From Escherichia coli (lineage in GTDB: Bacteria > Pseudomonadota > Gammaproteobacteria > Enterobacterales > Enterobacteriaceae), in NCBI RefSeq assembly GCF_046105845.1, contig NZ_CP151004.1: DNA of 64,000 nt. One strand, written 5' to 3'. How positions within the stretch are numbered: the first letter of the stretch is position 1; each line of letters starts with the position of its first letter. Under the pieces are notes generated by a model. That model did not search any database, was not told where the DNA came from, and saw only the letters and a program-made list of their open reading frames with translations. The position numbers and the translations under genes are program-made. Of this stretch, positions 38,335 to 43,124 are shown piece after piece.

Positions 38335-39438
38335 TTATTTGGTTAAATTGGGGCTGCCACCACGATTTCTACGCAGTCTGCGTTTTACGCGCTTAATAAA
38401 GCGAGCAACTTTCCAGGCACGCTTAATGCAATATCCATAGAGGAAGAATGCTAGCAAAAAGAGCACCAGCATGACCCACTCCGGGACAAAATGAGAATAT
38501 TCTGCCAGCACCCCAATGGAGGCGAGCAGAGCTGCGGCAAGGGTAATCAGCACAAACGCCTGGCGGGAAGTAAACCCGGCACGCATGATCAAATGGTGAA
38601 TATGCTGGCGATCAGGAGAGAACGGACTCATGCCTTTACGCAGGCGACGGTACATAATCGCCACCATATCCATTAGCGGAATGGCGATTATCCACAAAGC
38701 GGTAACCGGGCTGATGGGATGGGTTTTGCCCTGGGTCGTTTCGAGCAGGATCCAGATAACGGTAAAACCAATCAGCGTACTGCCCGCATCACCCATAAAG
38801 ACTTTGTAGCGGCGACCCAGGATACCAAGGTTAAGCATGATGTATGGCAGGATGGCGGCGATCATCGCAAAACACCAGATTGCAAGGCTGGTTTGCCCGT
38901 CGAACCACAAAATCATACCGATTGCTGCAAACGAGACGCAGGACAACCCGCCCAGCAAGCCATCAATGCCATCAACCATGTTGAACGCATTAATGGCCGC
39001 CCAGACGGCAAATAGCGTCAGGAAGTAGCCAAACGGTCCGAGCACCATCTCCCAGGAGCCAAAGATATAACCCAGGCTACTGAGATAAAGTTTGCCGAAC
39101 ACCATCATAACAATGCCAACAGCGGCCTGTATGGTGGCACGGATTTTTACGCTGATATCAAAACGGTCATCCAGCGCGCCAATGAAAACAAGCACACCGG
39201 CACAAGCGAGATAGAGAGATGCATGCGGAATATAGTAATCGACAATTCCGAACGTGAAGCAAATCCCTGCGTAAACCGAAATCCCCCCAACGAGAGGTAT
39301 CAATCCCTGGTGACGTTTGCGGAAGTTAGGTTTATCCACTAAACCGACTTTTTTTGCCACCTTACGGGCAAAAAACAGAAACAGTGTCGTGAATAAAAAA
39401 ATACTGATGAGATCAGTACTCACTGTCAGTAAATTCAC
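38335..39438 (-). CDS. wecA: Undecaprenyl-phosphate GlcNAc-1-phosphate transferase
   Basis: 367-aa polytopic membrane protein MNLLTVSTDLISIFLFTTLFLFFARKVAKKVGLVDKPNFRKRH... Confidence 0.9.
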   Translation of the reverse strand: MNLLTVSTDLISIFLFTTLFLFFARKVAKKVGLVDKPNFRKRHQGLIPLVGGISVYAGICFTFGIVDYYIPHASLYLACAGVLVFIGALDDRFDISVKIRATIQAAVGIVMMVFGKLYLSSLGYIFGSWEMVLGPFGYFLTLFAVWAAINAFNMVDGIDGLLGGLSCVSFAAIGMILWFDGQTSLAIWCFAMIAAILPYIMLNLGILGRRYKVFMGDAGSTLIGFTVIWILLETTQGKTHPISPVTALWIIAIPLMDMVAIMYRRLRKGMSPFSPDRQHIHHLIMRAGFTSRQAFVLITLAAALLASIGVLAEYSHFVPEWVMLVLFLLAFFLYGYCIKRAWKVARFIKRVKRRLRRNRGGSPNLTK

Positions 39439-39626
39439 AATGCATGCTCTCAGAGAAAATTATTAGCAGAAGTATAACCACGAAGACCTTTATTCAGAAG
39501 GGAAAGTCCGTTCCGAACCCACCAGTCCTGTGCAAAAATTAACCATTTGATATGCAAATTGCATAACACACCAGCAAAATCCAGGAATTTTCCTAACATT
39601 GCCAGCGCGGCATTAAGATTACAGAT

Positions 39627-39665
39627 ATAAAAGCAAAACGCCACGTAAACACGTGGCGTTTTTGG
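39627..39665 (-). terminator. Intrinsic terminator just downstream of rho
   Basis: Minus strand reads AAAAACGCCACGTG-TTTA-CGTGGCGTTTTGCTTTT about 15 bp after the rho stop. Confidence 0.55.
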
Positions 39666-39677
39666 CATAAGACAAAT

Positions 39678-40937
39678 TTATGAGCGTTTCATCATTTCGA
39701 AGAAATCGTCATTGGTCTTGGTCATTGCCAGTTTATTAATGAGGAATTCCATTGCATCGATTTCGCCCATCGGGTGAATGATTTTGCGCAGGATCCACAT
39801 TTTCTGCAGTTCTTCCTGAGTAGTGAGCAGCTCTTCTTTACGGGTACCGGAACGGTTGTAGTCGATTGCCGGGAAGACGCGTTTTTCAGCGATCTTACGA
39901 GAGAGGTGCAGTTCCATGTTGCCTGTACCTTTAAACTCTTCGTAGATAACTTCGTCCATCTTGGAACCGGTATCGATAAGCGCGGTAGCGATGATGGTCA
40001 GGCTGCCGCCCTCTTCCACGTTACGCGCCGCACCGAAGAAGCGTTTCGGACGATGCAGGGCGTTGGCATCCACACCACCGGTCAGCACTTTACCTGACGC
40101 CGGAACAACGGTGTTGTAAGCGCGCGCCAGACGAGTGATGGAGTCGAGCAGGATGATAACGTCTTTCTTGTGCTCAACCAGGCGTTTCGCCTTCTCGATC
40201 ACCATTTCCGCAACCTGAACGTGGCGAGATGCGGGTTCGTCAAAGGTAGAAGCAACAACTTCACCTTTTACCAGACGCTGCATCTCGGTTACTTCTTCCG
40301 GACGTTCGTCGATCAGCAGAACCATCAGCACACAATCCGGGTGGTTGTAAGCAATGCTCTGAGCAATGTTCTGCAGCAGCATGGTTTTACCGGCTTTCGG
40401 CGGTGCCACAATCAGACCACGCTGACCACGACCGATAGGTGATGCCAGATCCAGTACGCGAGCGGTTAAATCTTCAGTAGAACCGTTACCACGTTCCATA
40501 CGCAGACGAGAGTTTGCGTGCAGCGGGGTTAAGTTCTCAAAGAGGATTTTGTTGCGGGCGTTTTCAGGTTTGTCGAAGTTAACTTCGTTAACTTTCAGCA
40601 GCGCAAAATAGCGTTCACCTTCTTTCGGCGGGCGAATCTTACCAGAGATGGTATCACCAGTGCGGAGGTTGAAACGGCGGATTTGGCTAGGGGAAACGTA
40701 GATGTCATCAGGACCGGCGAGGTAGGAGCTGTCTGCGGAACGGAGGAAACCAAATCCATCCTGCAATATCTCCAGTACACCATCACCAAAGATATCTTCG
40801 CCACTCTTTGCGTGCTGCTTCAGGATGGCAAAAATAATGTCCTGCTTACGCATACGAGCCAGGTTTTCCAGCCCCATATTTTCGCCGAGAGTGATCAGCT
40901 CAGAAACCGGCGTATTCTTTAATTCGGTAAGATTCAT
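39678..40937 (-). CDS. rho: Transcription termination factor Rho
   Basis: ORF 39678..41009; internal ATG 24 codons in gives the 419-aa protein [44 protein letters not shown]... Confidence 0.95.
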
Positions 40938-41021
40938 AGTGGTGTGAGTTCTTAAACTTGGGGTAAATCTCGAACTTAATGTTGTGAATGGTATGGCAGG
41001 ATCATCCATGCCTGTTTACGG

Positions 41022-41123
41022 TCATCGACTCATGTCTTTTCGCTGTCTGGTCACAGGAGAGTACGCAGAACTGAAACGACAAGACGGATTGAGTGACGAG
41101 CCAGAAATCTGTTCACTTCGCAT
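41022..41123 (-). CDS. rhoL: rho operon leader peptide
   Basis: My own minus-strand translation: ATG CGA AGT GAA CAG ... = MRSEQISGSSLNPSCRFSSAYSPVTRQRKDMSR (33 aa), about 85 bp upstream of the rho start. Confidence 0.6.
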   Translation of the reverse strand: MRSEQISGSSLNPSCRFSSAYSPVTRQRKDMSR

Positions 41124-41263
41124 TTAAGATAAAACGGGAAGCGTTGGAAATTACAAGATTCAAACTTAATAAGGTATGTTTAATACGAAGTCAACACTAA
41201 GTTAGCATGACTCACGCCGGGCGTCCAGTTTTTAGCGACGGGGCACCCGAACATGAAATTCCC

Positions 41264-41593
41264 TTACGCCAGGTTAGCGTCGAGGAACTCTTTCAACTGA
41301 CCTTTAGACAGTGCGCCCACTTTGGTTGCCGCCACTTCACCGTTTTTGAACAGCAGCAGAGTCGGGATACCACGGATACCATATTTCGGCGCAGTGCCAG
41401 GGTTTTGATCGATGTTCAGTTTTGCAACGGTCAGTTTGCCCTGATATTCGTCAGCGATTTCATCCAGAATCGGGGCGATCATTTTGCACGGACCGCACCA
41501 CTCTGCCCAGAAATCGACGAGGATCGCCCCGTCCGCTTTGAGTACATCCGTGTCAAAACTGTCGTCAGTCAGGTGAATAATTTTATCGCTCAT
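41264..41593 (-). CDS. trxA: Thioredoxin 1
   Basis: ORF 41264..41698 begins at a TTG; ATG at 41591-41593 gives the 109-aa protein [41 protein letters not shown]... (WCGPC active site). Confidence 0.95.
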
Positions 41594-41723
41594 ATATAAC
41601 TCCACAGGAATAAGCCTGGCGTGTTGGTTTCGTTGTTGGTGTAACATTAACCAACTAAAGGTTGACTTTATTTCACCGGATACGCTTTCGTAAAGCAATA
41701 GTAAGCTGATATTCTACCACACT

Positions 41724-42989
41724 ATGAGCAAAACACATTTAACAGAACAGAAGTTTTCCGACTTCGCCCTGCATCCGAAGGTTGTAGAAGCCCTTGAAAA
41801 AAAAGGGTTTCATAACTGTACGCCCATTCAGGCACTGGCCCTTCCGCTGACGCTGGCGGGTCGTGACGTAGCCGGGCAGGCGCAAACCGGTACCGGGAAA
41901 ACGATGGCGTTTCTTACGTCAACGTTTCATTATCTTCTCTCTCATCCCGCGATTGCCGATCGCAAGGTGAATCAACCGCGTGCCTTAATTATGGCACCGA
42001 CGCGTGAACTTGCCGTGCAGATCCACGCCGACGCAGAGCCACTTGCGCAAGCTACCGGCCTGAAGCTGGGTCTGGCTTACGGTGGTGATGGCTACGACAA
42101 ACAGCTGAAAGTGCTGGAAAGCGGCGTTGACATTCTGATTGGCACCACGGGGCGTTTAATTGACTACGCCAAGCAGAACCACATTAACCTCGGTGCCATT
42201 CAGGTAGTGGTACTGGACGAAGCCGATCGCATGTACGATCTGGGCTTTATTAAAGATATCCGCTGGCTGTTCCGCCGTATGCCGCCTGCAAACCAGCGCC
42301 TCAACATGCTGTTCTCCGCCACGCTTTCGTACCGGGTACGTGAACTGGCGTTCGAGCAGATGAACAATGCCGAATATATTGAAGTGGAACCGGAACAGAA
42401 AACGGGCCACCGTATTAAAGAAGAGCTTTTCTACCCTTCTAACGAAGAAAAAATGCGTTTGCTGCAAACGCTGATCGAAGAAGAGTGGCCAGACAGAGCG
42501 ATTATTTTCGCCAACACCAAACACCGTTGTGAAGAGATCTGGGGCCACCTGGCGGCAGATGGTCATCGTGTCGGTTTGTTGACAGGCGATGTCGCGCAGA
42601 AAAAACGTCTGCGTATTCTTGATGAATTTACCCGTGGGGATCTGGATATTCTGGTTGCCACCGACGTTGCCGCGCGTGGCCTGCATATCCCGGCTGTGAC
42701 GCACGTCTTTAACTACGATTTACCCGATGACTGTGAAGATTACGTTCACCGTATTGGTCGTACAGGTCGCGCAGGCGCAAGTGGTCATTCCATCAGCCTG
42801 GCATGTGAAGAGTATGCATTGAATTTGCCTGCTATTGAGACCTATATTGGTCACTCAATTCCGGTAAGCAAATACAATCCGGACGCATTGATGACCGATC
42901 TGCCAAAACCGCTGCGCCTCACGCGCCCGCGCACAGGCAATGGTCCGCGTCGTACTGGCGCTCCGCGTAATCGTCGTCGTTCAGGTTAA
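41724..42989 (+). CDS. rhlB: ATP-dependent RNA helicase RhlB (DEAD box)
   Basis: 421-aa ORF with Q motif, Walker A (AQTGTGKT), DEAD and SAT motifs. Confidence 0.95.
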
Positions 42990-43124
42990 ATAAAAAATGT
43001 CATACTCAAAATCATTCAAACTGGATCAAGATGGCAAGAGAATGAATCCCGATGCGCTTACTGTCGTAAGTGATTCGGGTGAAGGAATGCAGCCAACGCA
43101 GAGACAGATTGAAGGATGAAGAGT

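Follow-up and report, generated by a model that had tools for sequence, protein, structure and literature searches.

Short open reading frames (ORFs) in long 5′ leaders, of which mgtL (upstream of Salmonella mgtA), tnaC and the topAI uORF toiL, which gate the access of Rho, and the classical attenuation leader peptides trpL, hisL and pheL are well-described cases, have conserved start codons, and several of them contain diagnostic regulatory or stalling codons. rhoL of Escherichia coli is, like them, a short ORF in a long 5′ leader, in this case the leader of the transcription termination gene rho. That leader is also the seat of an autogenous circuit: according to the papers that cite the original studies (Barik 1985; Matsumoto 1986), Rho reduces its own synthesis via transcription termination in its leader. 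In Salmonella, as described in papers citing Silva 2019, the rho 5′ UTR is the pairing target of the small RNA SraL, which counteracts attenuation, and the Salmonella studies regard the region as an untranslated 5′ UTR. EcoCyc lists rhoL among the leader peptides (PMC7815308). Here we report on the rho leader in a 64,000-nt stretch of E. coli DNA (assembly GCF_046105845.1, contig NZ_CP151004.1; hereafter the window), and on the question of what in this leader is conserved: the RNA, the act of translating rhoL, or the RhoL peptide.

Materials and methods

Positions in MG1655 were converted to window positions by equating the rho ATG at MG1655 3966417 with window position 40937, and the conversion was checked against NC_000913.3. 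Spacers between trxA and rho were collected from three sources: a one-genome-per-species scan with a Rho query (loci L003-L082), contigs encoding the exact E. coli TrxA (L083-L092), and a metagenome DNA-pattern scan (L093-L112), whose pattern was a non-Escherichia version of the conserved block that precedes rho. The 36 loci with the invariant core GTCGTTTCAGTTCTG gave 25 distinct spacers, which make up alignment A1. Taxon labels of the metagenomic loci are tentative and come from exact TrxA identity only; on this footing L094 is Cronobacter-like, L098 Atlantibacter-like, L103 Pseudescherichia-like, L112 Enterobacter kobei-like and L109 Cedecea-like.

Results

The locus and its reading frames

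The minus strand of the window carries trxA, a spacer (41263..40938) and rho, with rhlB divergent on the plus strand (Table 1). The region singled out in a preliminary description of the window, 40938..41263, is the entire 326-nt trxA-rho intergenic region, from the end of the trxA stop codon at 41264 to the rho ATG at 40937. Synteny of trxA and rho is common across Gammaproteobacteria. Of 5426 complete E. coli genomes, 5425 have a match to a 601-bp query around rhoL, at 95-100% identity, and trxA, rhoL and rho are annotated beneath the match in every record among the matches listed. Against E. coli genomes with rhoL annotated in the equivalent place the identity of these 601 bp is 99.5-100%, and against MG1655 it is 99.5%.

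The preliminary description had proposed a 33-codon ORF in the rho 5′ leader, and this ORF is indeed present. Its translation in the ORF list (MRSEQ...MSR, with an ATG start) equals the earlier-quoted MRSEQISGSSLNPSCRFSSAYSPVTRQRKDMSR exactly, and rhoL is annotated at the equivalent coordinates of NC_000913.3 (b3782, 3966231..3966332, 84 nt before rho), two further E. coli records being equivalent. The comparison with annotated rhoL gives full agreement. The RefSeq product WP_001295255.1 and the peptide in the window are identical, and E. coli K-12 rhoL (b3782, EG12428) encodes the same peptide in the same place, with 140 nt between it and the trxA stop codon and 84 nt between it and the rho ATG; the sole difference between the MG1655 and window genes is one synonymous AGA/AGG change. 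Against the NCBIfam equivalog NF007433 the RhoL peptide scores 95.2 bits (cut-off 85), with residues 1-33 on profile positions 1-33, and no Pfam family was found for it. The ORF lies between trxA and rho, on the same strand and directly upstream of rho, and was missing from the track of ORFs because it is short (the default threshold of the track is 60 aa). rhoL and the rho leader are an already known, annotated feature of E. coli. Among 5000 dinucleotide-preserving shuffles of the 326-nt spacer, 1878 (38%) also contain a closed ATG ORF of 33 codons or more; by its mere existence, an ORF of this length is not beyond chance.

The mechanical rho ORF of 443 aa (39678..41009) is longer than annotated Rho (419 aa), and the earlier remark that it extends 24 codons too far upstream was correct, the true start being at 40937: solved Rho structures (e.g. 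1pv4_A, 419 aa) begin at ORF residue 25, with MNLTEL. The frame of the extension is broken by 1- or 2-nt indels in L005, L094/96/99, L098/103 and L007/8/112. An N-terminally extended Rho initiated from the ATG at 41009 was rejected, given the structures and annotation that start at 40937 and these frame-breaking indels.

Table 1. Position and basis of the features of the trxA-rho region, in window coordinates
Feature	Position	Strand	Basis or remark
trxA coding sequence	41264..41593	minus	upstream neighbour; RefSeq annotation transferred; translation identical to E. coli TrxA
Hairpin just 3′ of the trxA stop, probably a 3′ stabiliser/terminator stem of trxA mRNA	41211..41257	minus	predicted fold
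Candidate rho promoter: -35 TGGACG (41227..41222), 17-bp spacer, -10 TAACTT (41204..41199)	41199..41227	minus	conservation
rho 5′ leader, autogenous Rho-dependent attenuator region	40938..41192	minus	probable 5′ end
Hairpin HP1 (GCUUCC.CGUUU / AAAUG.CGAAGU[G])	41114..41143	minus	fold and covariation
rhoL ORF, 33 codons + TGA, "rho operon leader peptide"	41022..41123	minus	ORF list, RefSeq, NCBIfam NF007433
C-rich, G-poorer stretch in rhoL, putative rut region	41034..41113	minus	composition scan, invariant columns
Possible long imperfect hairpin, 31 pairs, rhoL codons 8-34	41020..41102	minus	E. coli minimum-free-energy fold
Published RNA 3′ end within rhoL	41032	minus	Term-seq (PMC7815308)
Hairpin HP2 (GGCA-U-GG / AUGAU / CC-UGCC)	40995..41012	minus	predicted fold; holds the ATG at 41009
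In-frame ATG-to-ATG extension of the rho ORF, 24 codons, non-coding	40938..41009	minus	structures, annotation, indels
Hairpin HP3 (GUUC.GAGAUUU / ACCCC / AAGUUU..GAAC)	40948..40975	minus	RNAalifold consensus
rho coding sequence	39678..40937	minus	annotated Rho, 419 aa

Anatomy of the rho leader

An Rfam search of 39000..43000 (E ≤ 1) matched only the TrxA 5′ UTR thermometer and no rho-leader family, and a consensus scan of 40800..41700 for promoters and terminators found nothing. The predicted hairpin behind trxA has a folding energy of -20.3 kcal/mol in E. coli; for Superficieibacter and Salmonella the values are -22 to -24 kcal/mol. Hardly any variation is seen in its 3′ arm, CTGGACGCCCGG, among 25 Enterobacteriaceae sequences, whereas the 5′ arm changes from genus to genus. 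The stem is not followed by a T-run. Term-seq 3′ ends of trxA at MG1655 3966142/3966145 correspond to 41212/41209 of the window (PMC7815308).

The 3′ arm of this hairpin also contains the -35 hexamer of the candidate rho promoter. Both hexamers and an ungapped 17-column spacer are kept in 25 of the 25 aligned leaders, and the -10 hexamer varies at its fourth base only, which is C in Escherichia and G elsewhere (TAAGTT). Judged from this pattern, the start of rho transcription would lie near 41192, and Matsumoto's work of 1986 is said to have described a 255-nt rho leader, which agrees with that position. A rival promoter, TTGACT (41194..41189) and TATTAA (41171..41166) at a distance of 17 bp, is less conserved and is deleted in L006/L107; transcription from it would begin near 41160.

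HP1 is conserved and covaries. In E. coli it has a predicted energy of -10.0 kcal/mol, makes up 87% of the ensemble and has a z of -3.5. Across alignment A1, 86.9% of its cells are paired, vs 29-59% in slid controls, and two-sided changes occupy 17 cells, vs 0-6 in these controls; none of 500 shuffles reaches the observed values, and RNAalifold finds compensatory changes at two of its pairs. The loop varies in length: it is longer by about 45 nt in L007 and L008, and by about 19 nt in L112. The rhoL AUG (41123..41121) is base-paired in the inner stem of HP1 in E. coli, and in K. pneumoniae the AUG is found at the loop-stem junction of the HP1 3′ arm. The best anti-Shine-Dalgarno duplex of rhoL has an energy of +1.2 kcal/mol, vs a median of -4.3 for 45 long ORFs of the window; rho (-1.4 kcal/mol) and rhlB are likewise without a strong Shine-Dalgarno sequence.

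Downstream of HP1 the leader becomes C-rich. Positions 41113..41034, inside rhoL, have 30-32% C, 18-20% G, 11-13 YC dimers per 60 nt and a C/G ratio of 1.5-1.6, and in a second zone, 41003..40904, the ratio is 2.0-2.7. The most conserved block of the leader, GUCGUUUCAGUUCUG, lies within the C-rich zone of rhoL. An H-SELEX Rut peak of about 160 nt has been reported in the rho 5′ UTR (PMC9499579), and the bases responsible for it may be 41034..41113. A long hairpin in the body of rhoL is possible as well: 89.9% of its cells are paired in 22 distinct sequences, vs 28-47% in slid controls, for a structure that was derived from E. coli and has no significant covariation.

Two further hairpins precede the rho start. 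In Enterobacteriaceae the stem of HP2 is nearly invariant and its loop variable; by eye, its inner GG/CC pairs are replaced by CG/CG in Yersinia, Photorhabdus and Acerihabitans. HP3 ends 11 nt before the rho ATG and includes the sole purine-rich stretch (AAGAA) upstream of the rho start, and the changes that RNAalifold finds in it are one-sided only and preserve the pairs; conservation of the HP3 region reaches out to Yersinia and Photorhabdus. HP3 might have a role in rho translation.

Conservation of rhoL across Enterobacteriaceae

The preliminary description named a lack of conservation of the small ORF in other enterobacteria as the refuting observation, and such a lack is largely what is seen: in most genera starts are missing, frames are broken or stops have moved. 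An ATG ORF of 32-33 codons is found in the homologous place in E. coli, E. albertii (L003), L085 and the L093/L101 lineage. The peptide of the last, MRVKLIIPGFSLIPSSRFSSAFFPVTRQRTDTR, is that of public records named "rho operon leader peptide" of Klebsiella pneumoniae and quasipneumoniae, and the protein cluster of E. coli RhoL also includes records from E. fergusonii (32 aa), E. ruysiae and Shigella. The L007/L102/L105 lineage has a 32-codon ATG ORF too, with indels on both sides and only RRFSS in common with RhoL. That an ATG ORF has been kept in all sampled E. coli genomes, in other Escherichia and also in the K. pneumoniae complex, which is distant from them, might be due to selection for translation itself, and this goes against an emphasis on RNA only.

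Where rhoL would start, Salmonella enterica (L084/86/91), Citrobacter (L004, L005, L087), Superficieibacter (L006/L107), L009/L104, L098/L103 and L112 have neither an ATG nor a GTG or TTG, and in some start-less lineages the only in-frame TTG or GTG codons are either far upstream, near or before the likely transcription start, or in the last few codons. In Superficieibacter the rhoL stop is also lost and the frame continues into rho; L008/L109 have a 19-codon open frame without any start codon, and L094/96/99 have a 1-nt deletion and a stop after 18 codons. NCBI has "rho operon leader peptide" records for Salmonella (44 aa) and Citrobacter (39/42 aa). Their start codons are ATC or ATA and belong to the early leader, a good way upstream of the position of the E. 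coli AUG; these records look like homology-propagated calls. The absence of a canonical rhoL start in Salmonella agrees with the view of the region as an untranslated 5′ UTR in the Salmonella studies.

Differences are seen at closer range as well: within Escherichia they include S9L, P23L and, in E. albertii, a stop one codon earlier, and the N-terminal third of RhoL is entirely different between Escherichia and Klebsiella. Outside Enterobacteriaceae, an nhmmer profile of A1 gave a weak full-length match only in Acerihabitans, while Yersinia and Photorhabdus match the profile only in the promoter block and the last ~95 nt, their rhoL part not being alignable.

The substitutions lack the mark of a coding sequence. 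No third-position excess was found in rhoL in the 25 sequences, where variable columns at codon positions 1/2/3 number 15/18/18 and the diversities are 0.178/0.186/0.171; control counts from the same loci are 7/1/30 for the last 34 codons of trxA and 13/5/141 for the first 200 codons of rho. Per-column conservation climbs from near 41100 up to the rho start codon and passes the rhoL stop without a step; within the leader, variability is highest in the first nine codons of rhoL. Taken at the level of these alignments, the sequence of rhoL is conserved as RNA or DNA, not as protein.

Serine accounts for 9 of the 33 codons. We considered a serine-sensing leader, which is unsupported: the same residues occur in the start-less frames of other genera. 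The serine richness of RhoL arises because the RNA is C/U-rich.

Published termination and translation data at the locus

The preliminary description had also named the leader as the site of Rho-dependent autoregulation, and published data that map onto the window bear this out. In Term-seq and DirectRNA-seq with bicyclomycin, a Rho-termination peak at MG1655 3966504 (score 7.8, p = 1.3e-215) corresponds to window position 40850, and within a Rho-termination region a 3′ end at MG1655 3966467 (Rho score 7.07) falls at 40887, 50 nt into rho (PMC7815308). A further 3′ end, at MG1655 3966322, is the one inside rhoL in Table 1 and is present in two growth-condition tabs (PMC7815308 supplement). In RNA polymerase ChIP, too, polymerase is lost within rho in a Rho-dependent manner when compared with the rhoL region (PMC12121999; PMC5499598); in a rho R66S mutant, polymerase occupancy within rho is up 12-fold, and tetracycline causes no significant change in it (PMC12121999). 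A windowed duplex scan of SraL/RyjA against the leader gave a 13-bp match at 41181..41167 (-16.6 kcal/mol) and others down to -20 kcal/mol, and thus nothing beyond shuffled leaders, in which the mean best is -20.6.

For rhoL itself, Ribo-RET places it among the small ORFs for which low Mg2+ raises the signal of initiation 3-fold or more, with no follow-up (PMC11429745). In a rhoL deletion RpoS-dependent expression is transiently reduced (PMC11188689), and a fragment of rhoL in multicopy makes small-RNA termination weaker (PMC9765468); both effects can also reflect the RNA or altered Rho levels, and these published results do not tell effects of the ORF apart from those of the RNA. No data on rhoL start-codon mutants were found in the published literature searched. 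The earlier characterisation of rhoL as a regulatory small ORF is thus upheld only in part: annotation and the Ribo-RET initiation signal favour it, whereas the ORF is not conserved across genera and has no coding signature. These results leave room for a lineage-specific role of rhoL translation.

Discussion

The rho leader of the window is probably best understood as a conserved RNA-level attenuator, in which translation of rhoL is most likely a weak, lineage-specific accessory and the RhoL peptide is not conserved. Following the mechanism in the literature, Rho would load on the C-rich, poorly translated leader RNA and halt transcription at sites that range from the distal leader to within the first ~90 nt of rho, and an excess of Rho would lower its own synthesis, a negative feedback. 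What selection keeps in Enterobacteriaceae is probably RNA sequence and structure: HP1, the invariant GUCGUUUCAGUUCUG block and, ahead of the rho start, HP2 and HP3. Translation of rhoL could at most modulate the access of Rho, via ribosome occupancy over the putative Rho-loading stretch.

This reading has to be weighed against others that give rhoL either more or less of a role. It is unlikely, in our estimation, that rhoL is a real translated regulatory leader ORF whose ribosomes counter attenuation by covering the C-rich region for Rho loading (codons ~4-30). Such an arrangement would tie Rho synthesis to translation capacity or Mg2+ status, and since the act of translation is what would matter, conservation of the peptide would be unexpected. 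Against it, no ATG uORF lies over the region, in any frame, in Salmonella, Citrobacter, Superficieibacter, L009/L104, L094-99 and L098/103, lineages that still keep the leader sequence and, in the case of Salmonella, autoregulation as well. In its favour, the ATG ORF has been kept in 5,425 genomes of E. coli as well as in other Escherichia and in K. pneumoniae, it overlaps the C-rich conserved block, and in the lineages with a longer HP1 (L007, L008, L112) ATG ORFs of 36-48 codons run across the region in another frame. The Ribo-RET initiation signal induced at low Mg2+ (PMC11429745) and the listing by EcoCyc as a leader peptide point the same way. The start, however, has no Shine-Dalgarno sequence and an AUG paired in a -10 kcal/mol hairpin, ORFs of such size are common by chance, and polymerase occupancy within rho does not respond significantly to tetracycline (PMC12121999).

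Several of these points would fit equally a chance ORF in a conserved non-coding leader, not meaningfully translated, with an annotation that is historical and propagated by homology, a reading that we consider possible but doubtful. It would account for an equal or longer ORF in 38% of the shuffles, for substitutions with no coding signature, for the sequestered AUG and missing Shine-Dalgarno sequence, for homologues annotated from ATC or ATA in Salmonella and Citrobacter, and for the lack of a Pfam family. The published Ribo-RET signal at rhoL is harder to reconcile with it, as is the keeping of start and frame throughout Escherichia and in the K. pneumoniae complex, although the retention in Escherichia carries little weight because the RNA-level sequence is so conserved within the genus. 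At the other extreme, RhoL might function as a small protein with, for example, Rho or RNA polymerase as its target. This we hold to be very improbable: it is favoured only by the name in the annotation and by the phenotypes of rhoL deletion and multicopy, for which altered Rho levels, or leader RNA that titrates Rho, provide an explanation, whereas the peptide is not conserved, its start is absent or its frame shifted in most genera, and Escherichia itself shows nonsynonymous changes and shifted stops.

A conserved RNA attenuator could also have acquired an ORF on top of it in some lineages only. We can picture, at low probability, a rhoL whose HP1-locked AUG is opened under certain conditions, e.g. 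at low Mg2+, so that ribosomes shield the loading of Rho. If this were true, Escherichia and the K. pneumoniae complex would have an extra condition-dependent input into Rho levels, rhoL would not be ancestral as a leader peptide but gained or retained only there, and for Salmonella and Citrobacter the ATC/ATA annotations would be artefacts that homology propagation has produced.

That a so-called leader peptide evolves like RNA and not like a coding sequence is of modest comparative value. It has a practical side too: deletions of rhoL remove attenuator RNA besides the peptide, which bears on the design of such deletions and on how their phenotypes are interpreted.

rhoL is unlike the leader ORFs mgtL, tnaC, toiL, trpL, hisL and pheL in that it has no Shine-Dalgarno sequence, an AUG held in a hairpin and no obvious run of regulatory codons, and in that it is not kept between genera. 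It resembles them in being upstream of a Rho-terminated region and in overlapping C-rich RNA that a ribosome could shield. Among the known systems closest to the locus is the autogenous rho attenuation system itself, with which it shares both the gene and the leader, and whose published 3′ ends and bicyclomycin-sensitive termination map here.

Conservation across the trxA-rho spacer and a possible constraint at the start of rho

The beginning of rho itself seems to be constrained beyond its coding role. Third-position diversity in the first 34 codons (40836..40937, minus strand) is 0.114 versus 0.254 in the first 200 codons, i.e., under half, and the published Rho-dependent 3' ends at 40887 and 40850 fall within these 34 codons. 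This low diversity suggests an RNA-level constraint on this segment. The in-frame ATG upstream of rho, contained in the invariant GGCATGGATGA of the hairpin HP2, was rejected as an alternative Rho start because, while it is in the rho frame in E. coli, Salmonella, some Citrobacter, Superficieibacter, K. pneumoniae, and locus L009, the frame is disrupted elsewhere by 1- or 2-nt indels.

Coordinates of features in and around the trxA-rho spacer
Feature	Position	Strand	Remark
trxA-distal hairpin	41211..41257	-	columns 1-12 of the spacer alignment
In-frame ATG-to-rho stretch	40938..41009	-	ATG at 41009
TrxA 5' UTR thermometer (RF02773)	41564..41663	-	Rfam match, immediately 5' of trxA

At the other end of the spacer, the 3' arm of the trxA-distal hairpin, CTGGACGCCCGG, shows almost no variation among 25 Enterobacteriaceae sequences, and the 5' arm and loop differ from genus to genus. 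The candidate rho promoter has its -35 partly or wholly in this 3' arm, so a single sequence may play a double role. The published trxA 3' ends (41212 and 41209) lie immediately 3' of the hairpin stem, within the spacer of the candidate promoter. On the upstream side of trxA, the thermometer match reaches 78.8 bits, above its gathering score of 58, with E = 5.8e-13.

The spacer is longer in Salmonella enterica, 418 nt (L084, L086, and L091) versus 326 nt in E. coli, and the surplus of ~90 nt lies directly after trxA (locus positions ~2831-2920) and contains the inverted repeat CGTCGAATGACA ... TGTCATTCGACG. In the E. coli genome collection, one of the 5429 matching places of the leader region is in a record labelled plasmid, and at least one genome carries two copies.

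Other reading frames and possible SraL pairing

The "rho operon leader peptide" of public records, 44 aa in Salmonella (L084, 3027..3161) and 39/42 aa in Citrobacter (L087, 2961..3080), is probably an annotation artefact of homology transfer: its first codon is ATC or ATA, and its frame has no canonical start before the last few codons. Where the loop of HP1, the hairpin pairing the rhoL AUG, is enlarged by roughly 20-45 nt (L007, L008, and L112, as well as L102, L105, and L109; alignment columns ~119-148), ATG ORFs of 36-48 codons span the conserved block in a different frame and have RLVVSVLR or SVVSVL in common; the E. coli GTG ORF at 41051..41116 is in the counterpart frame.

The small RNA SraL (RyjA; L114, 927..1067, minus strand) shows, through nt 35-47, 13 bp of contiguous complementarity to the conserved leader block AACAUACCUUAUU (41167..41181, minus strand). 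This may be due to chance, because shuffled leaders reach equally good pairing energies. Were AACAUACCUUAUU a real SraL site, transcription would need to start upstream of 41181.
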